A DNA stretch of 25,585 nt from Patescibacteria group bacterium (GTDB lineage: Bacteria; Patescibacteriota; Patescibacteriia; 2-12-FULL-60-25). The stretch's first letter is position 1. Every line of letters begins with the position of its first letter. Shown here piece by piece: positions 3,074 to 24,905 of the stretch. The position numbers were made by a program, and so were the translations under genes. The notes below the pieces were generated by a model. The model was not told the DNA's origin, did no database searches, and was given only the letters and a program-made list of their open reading frames with translations. The DNA is taken from contig JAHJFW010000077.1 of NCBI GenBank assembly GCA_018824765.1, positions 1 through 25,585 of the forward strand, in the 5' to 3' direction.

Positions 3074-3111
3074 ATTATCAATTTTATCTCGATAGAGAAA
3101 AAATTGATAAT
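3074..3111. repeat. 38-bp ATTATCA...TGATAAT palindrome, copy 1
   Basis: ATTATCAATTTTATCTC-GATA-GAGAAAAAATTGATAAT; 16 of 17 positions pair. Confidence 0.85.
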
Positions 3112-3175
3112 TAACCTAAGTTTCAAGCCCTTGACACGCAATAAATTATATGGCAGCGGTATATGTAGGAGGACT

Positions 3176-3733
3176 ATGAAAAGAAAAACCCGAGAAAGTG
3201 CAAAAATCATCTCGTGCTCATTACTGAAAATCTTGGCAATGGGAACGTTAGTAACGATTGCCGGTCTGCTTTCCCAAGGAAAAACGGCCGACAAACTCGT
3301 GAAAGACCTTGGAAGATATTCTGCCTGGGAAATTAAACAACTACTGAGAAGATTAAAGGTCAGAAAACTCATCACATATGATGAAGAAGACGAGCACTCG
3401 CCCATTATGCTGACAGAACGGGGTTTTTCACGTTTAAGTAAGGATAATTTTAAAGTTATCAAAGGACGGAAATGGGATCATTTTTGGAGATTGATACTAT
3501 TCGATATTCCCGAATACCCGAAAAAGCGCCAGAGCTTCCAACGAATGTTATGTTCCCTAGGTTGTTTTCAAGTCCAAAAAAGTGTCTACGCCTATCCATT
3601 TGATTGCCAATCAGATCTAATTCGATTAGCCTCACAATACAAGGTCGGGGGTTACGTTACAGTCTTAACGATACCTACCCTCGGTCCACATGAAAAAAAC
3701 GCGCGGGATTTTTACTTTAAAAAATCGCGTTGA
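3176..3733 (+). CDS. Stand-alone PaaX-like protein: probable N-terminal winged HTH plus Cas2-like (ferredoxin-fold) domain
   Basis: KWDHFWRLILFDIPE...LCSLGCFQVQKSVYAYPFDC matches the PaaX-central/Cas2-like pattern common in CPR. The N-terminal L..L...KLI.Y....IMLTERG resembles a wHTH. Start placed at ATG 3176 after AGGAGG (3167-3172); 185 aa. Confidence 0.8.
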   Translation: MKRKTRESAKIISCSLLKILAMGTLVTIAGLLSQGKTADKLVKDLGRYSAWEIKQLLRRLKVRKLITYDEEDEHSPIMLTERGFSRLSKDNFKVIKGRKWDHFWRLILFDIPEYPKKRQSFQRMLCSLGCFQVQKSVYAYPFDCQSDLIRLASQYKVGGYVTVLTIPTLGPHEKNARDFYFKKSR

Positions 3734-3736
3734 GCA

Positions 3737-3774
3737 ATTATCAGAAAAAGCCCTATCGGGCTTTTTCTGATAAT
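3737..3774. repeat. 38-bp ATTATCA...TGATAAT palindrome, copy 2 (may also act as a terminator)
   Basis: ATTATCAGAAAAAGCCC-TATC-GGGCTTTTTCTGATAAT; perfect 17-bp arms, starting 3 nt after the stop codon. Confidence 0.9.
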
Positions 3775-3844: not shown

Positions 3845-3878
3845 GGATCCCTCGACTAGCTGTACTCGCTCAGGATGA
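3845..3878 (-). repeat. CGTC/GTCAT-type REP-like half element downstream of infB
   Basis: Minus strand reads TCATCCTGAGCGAGTACAGCTAGTCGAGGGATCC, matching the GTCATCCTGAGCGA...GTCGAAGGATC pattern of this repeat class (pattern recalled, not searched). Confidence 0.55.
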
Positions 3879-3886
3879 TTGTTTAG

Positions 3887-5902
3887 CTATCGCTGAACAA
3901 TCACTTTCCTCTCCTTCACATCCTCGTGATACACCTCTAGTTTATCACCAACAATAATTTTCACCTTCCCCTTAAACGCCAAACCGCACTCTTGGCCGCT
4001 GTAGGCTTCTTTTACGTTCTGCTTGCCGGATTGGACGGATTCGATAACTCCCTCACCGACAGGCTCTTCCCCGCGCCAGACACGCACCTTTTCTCCAGCT
4101 ACAATTTTCCCATCTCTCACGGATCCGCCGATAACCATGCGGCCGTGTTCAGTCCGGAAAATGGCAGCCGTCATGAATTCTCCAAGCGGCGTAACAATAA
4201 CTTCCGGCGGAACCATGGCATTCAAACGCTCCACAACATCGTCAAACAAATCATAGATAACTTTCCACTCTTTCACTTCCACGCCTTTCTCGCGCGCAAG
4301 TATCGCCGCCTGCGGCGTAATCGCTACGTTAAATCCATACACAACAGCCGGCTGCGCATCCTCTGCGCGCAAGATGTCATTTTCCGTAACATTGCCCAAA
4401 CCTTTTTTAATAACTTCCACGCCGATCTCATCGTGCTGTATTTTTTCAAACATTCCCAGCAATGCTTCCAGCGAACCCAAAACGTCACATTTCAAAACCA
4501 CATTCAGCATCTTTTTCGCTTCGGTCTTATCTTCCTCAGCGACAGCAACTTTGGTTGCTGAAAGTTGTGAAGCTACCTGATACGATGATTTCACTTTTTT
4601 AACTTGCAGCGTCTTGGGATCTTTCGGGACTTCCAAAATATCTCCGACAGACGGTGCGGCCTTGAAACCCAAAATCTTCACAGGGGTCCCCGGCGGCGCG
4701 GCTTCGAGCATACCCCCGTTCCAATCACGCATTGCCCTGACGCGACCGTAAGCGGCGCCGGCAACACCAATATAATCGTTGCGCTTAAGAGTTCCGGTTT
4801 GCACGAGGACGGTCGCAACAGGCCCTTCGCCCTTGTCCACGTGAGCTTCGATAACTGTGCCGGCTGCCAAGCGTTCGGGATTAGCGACTATTTTATCGGC
4901 ATTTAAATCAGCCACCAACAAAATCATGTCTAAAAGATCATCAATTCCCAATCCGCTTTTGGCTGAAATTTTCACCAACGGAACTTTGCCGCCCCAATTT
5001 TCAACGGTTACGCCGTTTTCCGCCAACTGTGCGAGCACGCGGTCCGGATCCGCCTCCGGCTTGTCCATTTTATTCAGCGCCACCACGAACGGCAGTTTCG
5101 CCGCCTGGATAATGCTGATTGCTTCCTTTGTCTGCGGCTGGACGCCGTCATCCGCTGCCACCACCAAAACCGCAATATCAGCCACGCGAGCGCCACGCGA
5201 GCGCATGACTGTAAATGCTTCGTGTCCGGGGGTATCGATAAAAGTAATCCTTCTCCCCTTCTTTTCCACCATGTAAGCACCGATATGCTGCGTAATTCCA
5301 CCAGCTTCTCCGCCCATGACATTGGTCGAACGAATAGCATCCAGAGTTTTGGTTTTTCCATGGTCAACGTGACCCATAACCACAACCACCGGGGGACGCG
5401 CAATGTTGTCTTCCGATTTCTCACTGTCCATAATCTCACGCACCCGATCGCCCGCCTGCATCACTTCCGCCAAATCGTCGCCCTTCGCTTCTTCCGGCAG
5501 AGCTTGAAAACCCAACTCCTCGGCAATGATGGAAGCTGTTTCAAAATCAAGACGCTCGTTTTGTGTGGCTAAAATGCCGCCTTTCATCAACTGCTGGATC
5601 ACCTTGGTAACCGGCATATTCAACTTACCGGCAAAATCCCTGACAATTATCATTGGCTGTAAATGTATCTCTTTCAATTTCTGCGTAGACCCCTCGCCGA
5701 TCCCCGGTTTGGCTTCAACAATCAAAGCGTCGCGCAGCTTTTTGCGGCGTTCCATCTCTATCCATTTCCGCGCGATCTGTTCGCCGGTTCTGTCATCAAT
5801 TTTAATGGCACGCCTGCCGATATCAAAACCAAACTCCGGCAATCTTTCCAAAAGCTCACTTGGGGTAACACGCAATCGGCGCGCAAGATCTGATACGTTC
5901 AT
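3887..5902 (-). CDS. infB: Translation initiation factor IF-2
   Basis: GHVDHGKT, GGITQHIGAY, DTPGHEAFTVMRSRGA, NKMD GTPase motifs. Start placed at MNVSDLARRL (5902), which is supported by the promoter position; 671 aa. Confidence 0.98.
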   Translation of the reverse strand: MNVSDLARRLRVTPSELLERLPEFGFDIGRRAIKIDDRTGEQIARKWIEMERRKKLRDALIVEAKPGIGEGSTQKLKEIHLQPMIIVRDFAGKLNMPVTKVIQQLMKGGILATQNERLDFETASIIAEELGFQALPEEAKGDDLAEVMQAGDRVREIMDSEKSEDNIARPPVVVVMGHVDHGKTKTLDAIRSTNVMGGEAGGITQHIGAYMVEKKGRRITFIDTPGHEAFTVMRSRGARVADIAVLVVAADDGVQPQTKEAISIIQAAKLPFVVALNKMDKPEADPDRVLAQLAENGVTVENWGGKVPLVKISAKSGLGIDDLLDMILLVADLNADKIVANPERLAAGTVIEAHVDKGEGPVATVLVQTGTLKRNDYIGVAGAAYGRVRAMRDWNGGMLEAAPPGTPVKILGFKAAPSVGDILEVPKDPKTLQVKKVKSSYQVASQLSATKVAVAEEDKTEAKKMLNVVLKCDVLGSLEALLGMFEKIQHDEIGVEVIKKGLGNVTENDILRAEDAQPAVVYGFNVAITPQAAILAREKGVEVKEWKVIYDLFDDVVERLNAMVPPEVIVTPLGEFMTAAIFRTEHGRMVIGGSVRDGKIVAGEKVRVWRGEEPVGEGVIESVQSGKQNVKEAYSGQECGLAFKGKVKIIVGDKLEVYHEDVKERKVIVQR

Positions 5903-5909
5903 GCGTCGC

Positions 5910-5938
5910 ATCCTACGGGAAAACCGCAATTTGGTCAA
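5910..5938 (-). promoter_or_regulatory. Sigma70 promoter placing the infB TSS at or next to the ATG
   Basis: TTGACC (5938-5933), 17 nt, TAGGAT (5915-5910), 7 nt, ATG (5902). Confidence 0.7.
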
Positions 5939-6056
5939 CCTTCTTTTCCATGTAATTCGCACTTCGCATCCGGTGCAAAATGAACTCCGGCGATAATCCG
6001 TTTACCATCCCCCTGAAAGCCTTCGCAAGGTTGTCAGAGTGTGAGAGGATGTCCAT

Positions 6057-13102: not shown

Positions 13103-13140
13103 ATTATCAAAAATTTCCCGATCGGGAAATTTTTGATAAT
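13103..13140. repeat. 38-bp ATTATCA...TGATAAT palindrome, copy 3, abutting the tRNA-Arg 3' end
   Basis: ATTATCAAAAATTTCCC-GATC-GGGAAATTTTTGATAAT; extends to a perfect 42-bp palindrome at 13101-13142. Confidence 0.9.
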
Positions 13141-13214
13141 GGTGCACCCGCCAAGAATCGAACTTGGATCTCGGGCTTCGGAGGCCCGCATTCTATCCGT
13201 TGAAATACGGGTGC
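13140..13214 (-). tRNA. tRNA-Arg(CCG) with encoded CCA
   Basis: GCACCCGTATTTCAACGGATAGAATGCGGGCCTCCGAAGCCCGAGATCCAAGTTCGATTCTTGGCGGGTGCACCA; full cloverleaf, anticodon CCG. Confidence 0.97.
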
Positions 13215-24034: not shown

Positions 24035-24820
24035 ATGTTCATCCGGCTACTTGCATTTCTAGCTTCATTATCAATGTTCTTAATGCCCAATGCAGGCCAT
24101 GCGGCGGCTGCCGGCAATTTTTCTCCCGGCGACCTGATAAGGGGCAATGCCGTAAACACGGTTTATTATTTCGCGCCGGACGGCAAGCGTTATGTTTTCC
24201 CGAATGAAAAAACTTATTTTACTTGGTATTCGGATTTTTCCGGAGTCAAAACCATTACCGACGGCCAACTCGGCGCCATTCCTCTCGGAAAAAACATCAC
24301 ATACCGCCCGGGCTATAAAATGGTAAAAATCACTACTGACCCCAAGGTCTATGCGGTTGAGCAGGGCGGGATTTTACGCTGGGTCACCACGCAGGAAATC
24401 GCCGAAACACTGTATGGCTTGAGCTGGAAAAACCAGATAGACGACGTGCCTGATGCTTTTTTCACAAATTACACAATCGGCACGCCAATCACTTCGTCAG
24501 CCGCGTACGATCCGCAAGACACCATGACACTCACTCCCAATATCGCAATTGACAAACAGTTCGACGAGACACAAGCCACGATTACCATAAGCAGTGTGTC
24601 CAACGGCTTTGTCCCGCCGTCTATCACTATCCAAAAAGGCGAAATGATCATTTGGACAAACCGCGATATCGACACCCATACCGTAACAGGATCGGATTTC
24701 AGTTCAGGCACTCTTCAGCCAAACCAATCCTACAGCCGCGAATTTACATCCACCGGCTCATACGATTACAACTGCTCAATACAGCCCTCGATGAGAGGCA
24801 CGATCAATGTCGTTGACTAA
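24035..24820 (+). CDS. Secreted protein: same N-terminal domain plus C-terminal cupredoxin-like domain
   Basis: Signal peptide ending in AGHA; paralogous N-domain; FVPPSITIQKGEMIIWTNRD...HTVT...FTSTGSYDYNCSIQPSMRGTINV. Confidence 0.87.
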   Translation: MFIRLLAFLASLSMFLMPNAGHAAAAGNFSPGDLIRGNAVNTVYYFAPDGKRYVFPNEKTYFTWYSDFSGVKTITDGQLGAIPLGKNITYRPGYKMVKITTDPKVYAVEQGGILRWVTTQEIAETLYGLSWKNQIDDVPDAFFTNYTIGTPITSSAAYDPQDTMTLTPNIAIDKQFDETQATITISSVSNGFVPPSITIQKGEMIIWTNRDIDTHTVTGSDFSSGTLQPNQSYSREFTSTGSYDYNCSIQPSMRGTINVVD

Positions 24821-24867
24821 ACCTCCATCCGCAAAACAAAAAAATCCGTCATTGCGAGAAATTCCAA

Positions 24868-24905
24868 ATTATCAAAAAAAGCCCGATCGGGCTTTTTTTG
24901 ATAAT
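24868..24905. repeat. 38-bp ATTATCA...TGATAAT palindrome, copy 4 (may also act as a terminator)
   Basis: ATTATCAAAAAAAGCCC-GATC-GGGCTTTTTTTGATAAT; perfect 42-bp palindrome at 24866-24907. Confidence 0.9.

Follow-up and report, generated by a model that had tools for sequence, protein, structure and literature searches.

A small winged-helix/Cas2-fold gene of Patescibacteria bracketed by gene-specific palindromes: a candidate cassette with REP-like palindrome spread

Why does a stand-alone gene of the PaaX/Cas2 type lie between two long palindromes, and do gene and palindromes belong together? The question is raised by a 25,585-nt stretch of DNA (the window; contig JAHJFW010000077.1, positions 1–25,585, forward strand) from a Patescibacteria group bacterium (assembly GCA_018824765.1, 0.9 Mb in 130 contigs, 87% complete; hereafter the source genome, G000), in which a mini-PaaX gene encoding 185 amino acids (3176–3733, + strand, start codon ATG at 3176) is bracketed by two 38-bp palindromes (3074–3111 and 3737–3774) between the core genes trxA and infB. 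We compared this locus with the congeneric genomes G001, G002 and G003, with further genomes (G005, G010 and G049) and with 75 members of the protein family from more than 40 genomes. On the basis of these sequence comparisons, we judge the chances about even that the protein recognises its own palindromes in an inserted, self-contained cassette, and that the palindrome has spread into terminator positions in the species of the source genome, in the manner of repetitive extragenic palindromic (REP) elements.

Both palindromes have a 17-4-17 geometry and the ends ATTATCA and TGATAAT, as had been described in an earlier reading made from the letters alone (the sequence-only reading). The upstream copy is paired at 16 of 17 arm positions around a centre that reads GATA on the coding strand, and the downstream copy at all 17 (18 with the flanking A/T) around TATC. 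The two centres are reverse complements, and the sites are thus inverted relative to each other; they are alike only in ends, geometry and the C-GATA-G centre, and the inner arms differ yet stay paired. These details likewise agree with the sequence-only reading, as do the AT-richness of the gene and its strong Shine–Dalgarno sequence (SD) described below. The upstream copy lies in the divergent spacer between trxA and the gene, ends 64 nt before the ATG and has an AT-rich rather than a GC stem; it lacks a T-run, and no gene lies upstream whose transcript it could end. The downstream copy begins 3 nt past the stop codon and combines a GC hairpin with a T-run, making it terminator-like on the + strand. 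It is identical at 35 of 38 positions to the master copy (the sequence of nine identical palindromes dispersed in the source genome), and two of the three differences form a compensated pair. The pattern ATTATCA-N20-28-TGATAAT occurs four times in the window (0.00 in 100 shuffles), in each case with exactly 24 intervening nucleotides (at 3074, 3737, 13103 and 24868), and RNA folding of the hairpins gave −15.4 and −26/−27 kcal/mol (z = −6.3 to −9.1 compared with shuffles).

Within its repeats the unit probably carries its own expression signals. A −35-like hexamer, TTGACA (3131–3136, + strand), is invariant at three orthologous loci and present at most loci of the subfamily, 19–45 nt downstream of the upstream palindrome. 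It is followed by the block TGGCAGCGG-TATATG-T-AGGAGG (3151–3172, + strand), which places a −10-like TATAT and an SD directly before the start codon. The same succession between upstream element and ATG—TTGACA, 23 nt containing GCAGCGG, TATATA and SD—is common to subfamily homologues that are only 50–57% identical (the window and loci L022, L029, L031, L034 and L035). Given that the conserved block lies downstream of the upstream palindrome, the latter is probably outside the mRNA. At 23 nt, the spacing between TTGACA and TATAT is too wide for sigma-70 promoters of the standard kind and hints at a promoter that is unusual or depends on a factor; a sigma-54 reading of TGGCAGC was rejected, there being no GC element at −12. 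AGGAGG precedes just 10 of 640 genes of the source genome (approximately 1.6%, from crude gene calls). The G+C content of the gene (40.7%) is 8 points below that of its neighbours (infB, 50.7%) and in the lowest 4% for the source genome (48.6 ± 4.2%). Contigs of a groundwater metatranscriptome match 3098–3264 and 3323–3610 exactly, at a depth similar to that of trxA and infB; they are a weak sign of expression, being of low depth and possibly derived from DNA carry-over.

The encoded protein appears, from profile comparison and a structural model, to combine a PaaX-type winged helix with a Cas2 fold in which the signature Asp of Cas2 is retained; the C-terminal domain of PaaX is missing. Pfam searches matched PaaX_M (PF20803; 4.3e-14) and, at 19.0 bits and thus under the gathering cut-off of 23.8, CRISPR_Cas2; PaaX_C (PF08223) gave no match at E ≤ 0.01 in the 185-amino-acid protein. 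The winged helix spans residues ~1–80 and is followed by a linker helix, the Cas2 fold (~100–166) and a C-terminal helix. A profile built from 24 family members and compared with the Protein Data Bank matched Escherichia coli PaaX (8a39; 5.5e-5), aligning over residues 53–167 (recognition helix, wing and middle domain), and Cas2 (3exc; 1e-3), aligning with Cas2 proteins from strand 1 to strand 2. The AlphaFold model (predicted local distance difference test (pLDDT), 78) showed a winged helix, a linker helix and a beta-alpha-beta-beta-alpha-beta domain, and ended one helix later. With this model, Foldseek returned PaaX 8a39 at the top (179 columns), and also Rv0674, several Cas2 proteins and MarR-type regulators; the Cas2 structures matched at probability 1.0 through the ferredoxin-like fold (root-mean-square deviation of 2.4–3.9 Å over ~70 residues). 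F109-D110, R118, Q134 and S136 are invariant or nearly so, and Asp110 of the FDIP motif is invariant in the 24 sequences. D110, R118 and Q134-x-S136 align with signature residues of Cas2, where E. coli PaaX has LSEGL and APS; Asp110 itself aligns with the Cas2 Asp of 3exc and 6qxf at the end of strand 1, in agreement with the placement of the FDIP Asp in a Cas2-like site that the sequence-only reading had raised. No HUH, Tyr, Ser or DDE motif was found in the protein, and the prediction of a homodimer from two copies scored 0.19 against a mark of 0.32, which speaks neither for nor against a dimer. A candidate N-terminal transmembrane helix (hydrophobic residues 13–32) was rejected, as the segment corresponds to helices 1 and 2 of the winged helix and aligns with PaaX (pLDDT only 57–74 there). 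The window contains neither cas1, as reported earlier, nor a CRISPR array, and Cas1 (PF01867) was found in none of G000, G002, G003, G010 and G049 (a control search matched 7 of 14 genomes). The family comprises 4,518 clusters (50% identity, E ≤ 1e-10), nearly all of 175–200 amino acids, that databases label "Cas2" or "PaaX". It occurs in 76 of 301 sampled Patescibacteria genomes (about a quarter) at 1–12 copies each (12 in a 1.5-Mb genome), and the neighbours of its genes differ between loci.

Bracketing by palindromes is a frequent trait of this family. For each gene, 260 nt upstream were aligned locally with 260 nt downstream, and a score of at least 20 was taken as a match given that shuffled flanks scored at most ~16. 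By this measure, 48 of 75 family genes (~64%) have one gene-specific quasi-palindrome of 30–45 bp in both flanks: 31 of 46 in a first set and 17 of 29 in an independent replication set (one locus per genome, phylum-wide). The controls gave 27 of 759 genes of the source genome (3.6%) and none of 40 neighbours, an enrichment of ~18-fold. The expected enrichment at homologues is thus present, though not in the form that the sequence-only reading had given it—ATTATCA-N24-TGATAAT is not general, and the arms are specific to each gene. Paralogues and distant homologues of other genera, including one in a Berkelbacteria genome, have palindromes of their own, identical on both sides. A strict criterion of perfect palindromes was passed by 6 of 27 family genes, compared with 0 of 111 neighbours and 3 of 903 genes; a scan with this criterion missed most flanking elements in 12 new paralogues, which local flank alignment recovered. 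The three strict-pair genes of the source genome were two genes for Y1_Tnp-type REP-associated tyrosine transposases (RAYTs) with their own REPs, and an unannotated open reading frame (ORF) of 95 amino acids. Among the protein genes of the source genome that have a Pfam annotation, no others showed a matched pair, and the two RAYT/REP loci serve as an internal positive control for the signature of a REPtron.

The two IS200-like transposase genes lie on contigs C94 (G000:C94:15827-16420; L063:528-1121) and C116 (G000:C116:11700-12251; L064:501-1052), and the short palindromic repeats that flank them, of the GGTGCCAGGCACC type and the GTACGTACCTGGTAC type, recur elsewhere in the assembly on further contigs. 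The two loci have the look of true REP/RAYT systems within Patescibacteria. The 95-amino-acid ORF (G000:C63:10113-10683) has no Pfam match, has a promoter-like site and a terminator of its own, and is bracketed by two identical imperfect palindromes of 33–40 bp in direct orientation (L065:214-246 and 752-784).

At most loci of the family the first base of the downstream element falls within a range from 10 nt ahead of the stop codon to 25 nt beyond it; the upstream element as a rule stops 5–100 nt short of the gene start. The elements (30–45 bp) consist of gene-specific outer inverted repeats around a centre that, with few exceptions, reads C-(G/T)AT(C/A)-G or differs from it only slightly (CTATAG, 11; CGATCG, 8; the hybrid CGATAG/CTATCG, 9; CGGCCG, 4). 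Throughout the protein family this centre is kept, and it is the arms that change. The flanking copies are in direct orientation in 37 of 51 matched pairs (~70%) and inverted in the rest, including the pair in the window. The residue between Q134 and S136 is K/R in 6 of 8 proteins with CGATCG, D/E in 11 of 11 with CTATAG and H in 2 of 4 with CGGCCG; the window gene has K135 with CGAT-type centres. This correlation is an only suggestive hint that the protein may read the centre directly. Identical palindromes also occur apart from the genes. In G010, three subtypes were distinguished among 17 sites, and each subtype brackets one paralogue and has 1–3 identical solo copies; G003 has two flanking and two solo copies of a palindrome, and in both genomes the solo copies are likewise at gene 3′ ends. 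Several hybrid palindromes, in which the arms of two subtypes are joined at the centre, were found in G010 and G002. At one further locus of G010 (G010:C9:33369-34028; L046:970-1629), a small ORF that encodes a hydrophobic peptide and has its own promoter is enclosed by two palindromes belonging to different subtypes; ~70 nt outside each of these there is a copy of a 21-nt direct repeat.

Comparison with relatives places the insertion of the unit within the genus. Orthologues in G002 and G003 (76% identity) adjoin infB and are bracketed by perfect 38-bp palindromes, the upstream one lying 61–62 nt before the ATG, with compensated changes at the ends. The congener G001 provides the empty trxA–infB site that the sequence-only reading had looked to relatives for: the 45 nt that lie there between infB and trxA contain neither a gene nor a palindrome. 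The order infB–trxA–trxB is the same in G005, and in both genomes trxA follows infB on the same strand, indicating that the cassette was inserted, inverted, in the lineage of G000, G002 and G003. (In G005, the infB–trxA spacer (L061:1380-1490) consists of short tandem repeats with units of ~24 nt and ~10 nt.) The 38-bp class ATT-RYMW-N9-CGATCG-N9-WKRY-AAT has 10 matches in G000, 5 in G002 and 7 in G003, the genomes known to carry the infB-linked orthologue; controls gave 0, as did 58 other genomes of the family, including the congener G001. Judged from these sequences, the co-occurrence of class and gene amounts to a single event in a single clade, and it agrees with the independent cases in G010 and G003. 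Single ATTATCA-type matches in G002 and G003 are orthologous to no site in the window. In G002, in G003 and in all strain-level contigs the gene lies beside infB without exception, and six contigs of other samples have an identical protein, palindromes and synteny.

In the source genome the palindrome belongs to a dispersed family of 18 full copies, 15 with exact ends and 3 with changed ends (ATTATCC, ATTACCA and ATTATCG; two of them compensated), plus one truncated copy. Nine of the 18 are identical over 38 bp, and this master copy has, between its ATTATCA/TGATAAT ends, an A-tract, GCCCGATCGGGC and a T-tract. Sixteen copies are at the 3′ ends of genes or tRNAs (10 between convergent genes and 6 in co-directional spacers), and four begin exactly at the A of a tRNA CCA end; just two lie in divergent spacers, the upstream site of the mini-PaaX gene and one upstream of tRNA-Val. 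The window holds two copies besides the flanking pair. The last base of the first (13103–13140) is the A of the CCA end of tRNA-Arg(CCG) (13140–13214, − strand), and the second (24868–24905), one of the nine identical copies, lies 47 nt past a cupredoxin-like gene (24035–24820). At the position orthologous to the latter, G001 has a different GC-rich hairpin and G002 no hairpin. The gene for tRNA-Val(TAC) (G000:C44:9237-9500; L069) is bracketed by two master copies, the downstream one beginning at the CCA end, and the same tRNA gene in G003 is followed by an unrelated ordinary terminator hairpin. Ordinary hairpins at two orthologous positions in relatives indicate that the copies in the source genome are recent replacements or insertions, and these differing terminators, together with the identity of 9 of 18 copies, point to a recent spread. 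From its sequence and placement, the family seems to behave as two-way terminators. The sites are thus not exclusive to the mini-PaaX gene, belonging to an 18-copy genome-wide family of which most copies are at terminator positions; the link between gene and palindrome nevertheless stands.

Long hairpins (15–22-bp stem) that start at or within the CCA end, often with the CCA paired with a distal TGG, follow at least ten tRNA genes of the source genome (contigs C13, C34, C44, C56, C60, C67, C90, C98, C102 and C105), and such a hairpin appears to be the normal style of tRNA terminator in this organism. One solo palindrome (G000:C13:3717-3754; L067) is identical to the pair that brackets a paralogue in G003 (contig C34), of which the source genome has no close orthologue (best match, 36% identity).

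The arrangement resembles that of REP/RAYT systems (REPtrons/REPINs; Nunvar 2010; Bertels & Rainey 2011; PMC3116915, PMC3337134). There is one gene per palindrome class, with its own extragenic palindrome on both sides; extra copies are dispersed in intergenic space, mostly between convergent genes; paralogues have differing palindromes; the gene is inherited vertically and in synteny; and the real RAYT/REP pairs of the source genome give the same computational signature. Unlike RAYTs, mini-PaaX is a winged helix plus Cas2 fold and not a HUH/Y1 transposase (Pfam matched PaaX_M/Cas2 only). The palindromes, known here from sequence alone, are 30–45 bp long, often perfect and built around the C-(G/T)AT(C/A)-G centre, and there are 2–18 copies rather than hundreds, with no REPIN doublet structure shown. 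The RAYT/REPIN literature that we found has no mention of Patescibacteria and does not cover this protein, and in the library of papers searched we found none linking PaaX with Cas2 or describing the module.

Other known systems share single features. PaaX is a phenylacetyl-CoA-responsive DNA-binding repressor with a palindromic operator. The E. coli W protein (8a39; PaaX + PaaX_M + PaaX_C) is the best match in both sequence and fold (recognition helix, wing and Cas2-like middle domain), yet has 316 amino acids rather than 185 and has lost the Cas2 signature D/R/QxS that is kept here along with the loss of PaaX_C; moreover, the sites studied here are on both sides of the protein's own gene and dispersed at gene 3′ ends. 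Cas2 and stand-alone Cas2/VapD-like RNases (SSO8090, 3exc) have the ferredoxin-like fold and the aligned strand-1 Asp, and palindromic repeats flanking an inserted segment are reminiscent of the repeat–spacer–repeat order of CRISPR; the differences are the fused winged helix, the Pfam score below the Cas2 cut-off, and the lack of Cas1 in the five genomes searched and of an array in the window. The master copy, with its A-tract, GC stem-loop and T-tract, is like a bidirectional intrinsic terminator, as is the placement of 16 of 18 copies at 3′ ends. It differs from one in that nine copies are identical over 38 bp, the conserved 7-bp ends extend the stem past the A/T tracts, the class is limited to genomes holding the gene and the site at 3074 is without terminator features. 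Small gene units bounded by short imperfect palindromes, and gained or lost as units, are also formed by Xer-dependent dif modules (pdif, on Acinetobacter plasmids) and attC integron cassettes; in the present family, by contrast, the site sequence differs from unit to unit, and the one candidate for a specificity factor is a product of the unit itself. No tyrosine recombinase partner came to light, although no search was aimed at one.

We propose that the segment 3074–3774 is a self-contained cassette—palindrome, own promoter region, gene and second palindrome—that was inserted, inverted, between infB and trxA in the ancestor of three species of the genus. The winged helix would read the gene-specific outer arms, and the Cas2-like domain the family-wide C-(G/T)AT(C/A)-G centre. 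The upstream copy would mark the boundary of the unit or act as an operator, and the downstream copy would double as a terminator. A near-copy of the downstream palindrome has been copied to ~16 other intergenic sites in this species, where the copies occupy ordinary terminator positions, including four tRNA 3′ ends, and have taken the place of the usual terminator at no fewer than two of the positions checked. That protein and element are specifically related, and not together by coincidence, is indicated by the conserved centre, the compensated turnover of the arms, the match between the two flanks, the joint occurrence of the gene with its palindrome class, and a signature like that of RAYTs. 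From these comparisons we infer that the protein would bind its palindromes, and that cleavage, mobility and a spread driven by the protein may follow; within the proposal, plain autoregulation and nuclease-driven spread have roughly equal weight.

Several observations weigh against this proposal. About one third of family genes are without detectable matched flanks, as are the other five paralogues in the source genome (two of them cut by contig ends), and the window gene itself has a flank score of 10, agreement between its two copies being limited to ends, geometry and centre. Across three species and six samples, the gene has stayed in place. The correlation between residue 135 and the centre reflects approximately two independent transitions on the tree, with just one or two pairs of independent contrasts and no statistical power. 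Sixteen of 18 copies are where any terminator would be, and many long hairpins with no relation to them adjoin tRNA ends in the same genome; service as terminators could thus suffice to keep the copies. The upstream site precedes the −35-like hexamer and does not lie over the promoter, which is not the classical position of a repressor, and arm complementarity that is perfect beyond the needs of a dimer fits a hairpin of RNA or single-stranded DNA at least as well as a duplex.

Among the alternatives, the one that survives best, if still unlikely, is a plain autoregulated repressor: a PaaX-like dimer would bind an upstream operator, the downstream palindrome would be a mere terminator, the dispersed copies would be ordinary terminators sharing their ends by descent or gene conversion, and nothing would be mobile. 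The closest solved relative is indeed the repressor PaaX, the sites have palindromic symmetry, the upstream one keeps its position in three species, the gene is syntenically stable and the residue-135 correlation would fit base reading in a duplex. Such a repressor leaves unexplained why the same gene-specific element recurs downstream in ~64% of family genes, why identical solo copies of 28–38 bp sit at convergent gene ends, and why there are 1–12 paralogues per 1-Mb genome with a patchy distribution; its operator would be upstream of the −35-like hexamer, and the Cas2 signature Asp is invariant in the family yet missing from PaaX.

A true analogue of a REPtron, by analogy with RAYTs, seems improbable to us. 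In such a system, a Cas2-fold nuclease would nick or cut its cognate palindrome (as a hairpin or cruciform) and so drive the copying, exchange or integration of palindromes and cassette. It would account for a bracket signature that is the same as that of the two RAYT genes, for the star-like burst of nine identical copies in one species only, for the replacement of ancestral terminators, for the hybrid palindromes joined at the centre in G010 and G002, and for the direct-repeat flanks in 37 of 51 matched pairs, as expected after integration; the invariant Asp and the empty infB–trxA site also fit. The protein, however, has none of the HUH, Tyr, Ser and DDE motifs, and copy numbers are low (2–18). 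We know of no Cas2 that acts as a transposase or recombinase. The gene is unmoved in the lineages examined, and the contigs of four runs contained no excision or inversion joints, a weak negative since assembled contigs drop rare forms. The earlier suggestion of a mobile cassette that seeds the other copies is upheld in part: the RAYT-like signature and the recent spread of the palindrome agree with it, and the fixed place of the gene beside infB in three species and six samples does not. An equally small chance attaches to the broader possibility of a new, non-HUH kind of palindrome-propagating element with the winged-helix/Cas2 protein as its active partner; the Cas2 fold would read and cut the centre of the cognate palindrome, leading to the copying or exchange of cassettes and solo palindromes at these sites.

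It is quite improbable that there is no specific relation between protein and site, the palindromes being insulating terminators and integration scars of small foreign genes. That the 95-amino-acid C63 ORF, the tRNA-Val gene and the small membrane-protein ORF in G010 are also bracketed, and that long hairpins are a normal terminator style in the source genome, speaks for this explanation; it is opposed by the ~18-fold enrichment over neighbours and the whole genome, by the conservation of the centre across the family while the arms turn over, by the way the centre tracks a residue of the protein, and by the presence or absence of the palindrome class together with the gene.

Least likely of all is a function at the RNA level, with the protein binding or cleaving the transcribed hairpin like Cas6 or the VapD/Cas2 RNases to process mRNA or tRNA 3′ ends and autoregulate its own message: Cas2 and VapD folds do include RNases (3exc is titled one), most copies are in transcribed 3′ trailers (four beginning exactly at a tRNA CCA end), flanking copies are biased to the same orientation and one metatranscriptome contig begins within the upstream palindrome, but the promoter-like block between that palindrome and the gene puts the upstream copy probably outside the mRNA, ~30% of pairs, including that of the window, are inverted, a winged helix usually reads DNA, and the RNA evidence consists of low-depth contigs that may be DNA carry-over.

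Should the protein prove to read its own palindromes, the Cas2 fold would have a sequence-reading use not described before, and the family would offer protein/site pairs in a compact set that nature has already diversified. Should the protein drive the spread of the palindromes as well, the REP/RAYT lifestyle would have been invented a second time, independently, and the homogenisation of terminators in these reduced genomes would be explained. As the partner of a palindrome-propagating system, a Cas2-fold protein would mean that recognition of palindromic repeats by this fold exists outside CRISPR and might predate it. For annotation, genes of this family should not count as evidence of CRISPR in bacteria of the candidate phyla radiation.

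The neighbours of the gene in the window are trxA, trxB, infB and truB, and the gene annotation of the window, to which the search for paa genes was confined, lists none of the latter. On one side of the cassette, trxA (2571–2894, − strand) encodes a thioredoxin (Pfam Thioredoxin, 1.9e-32); on the other, infB (3887–5962, − strand; Pfam IF-2/GTP_EFTU) is convergent with the cassette. A further palindrome with a 12-bp stem, TGATTGTTTAGC TATC GCTGAACAATCA (3876–3903), lies between infB and the cassette and overlaps the infB stop codon. The motif GTCATTGCGAG (24848–24858 in the window; L070:1300-1440 in G003) recurs beside palindromes and within longer inverted repeats in G000 and G003, and a repeat of the GAATGACGAAATCCGAATGAC type flanks several genes of the source genome; the two constitute further dispersed repeat families.

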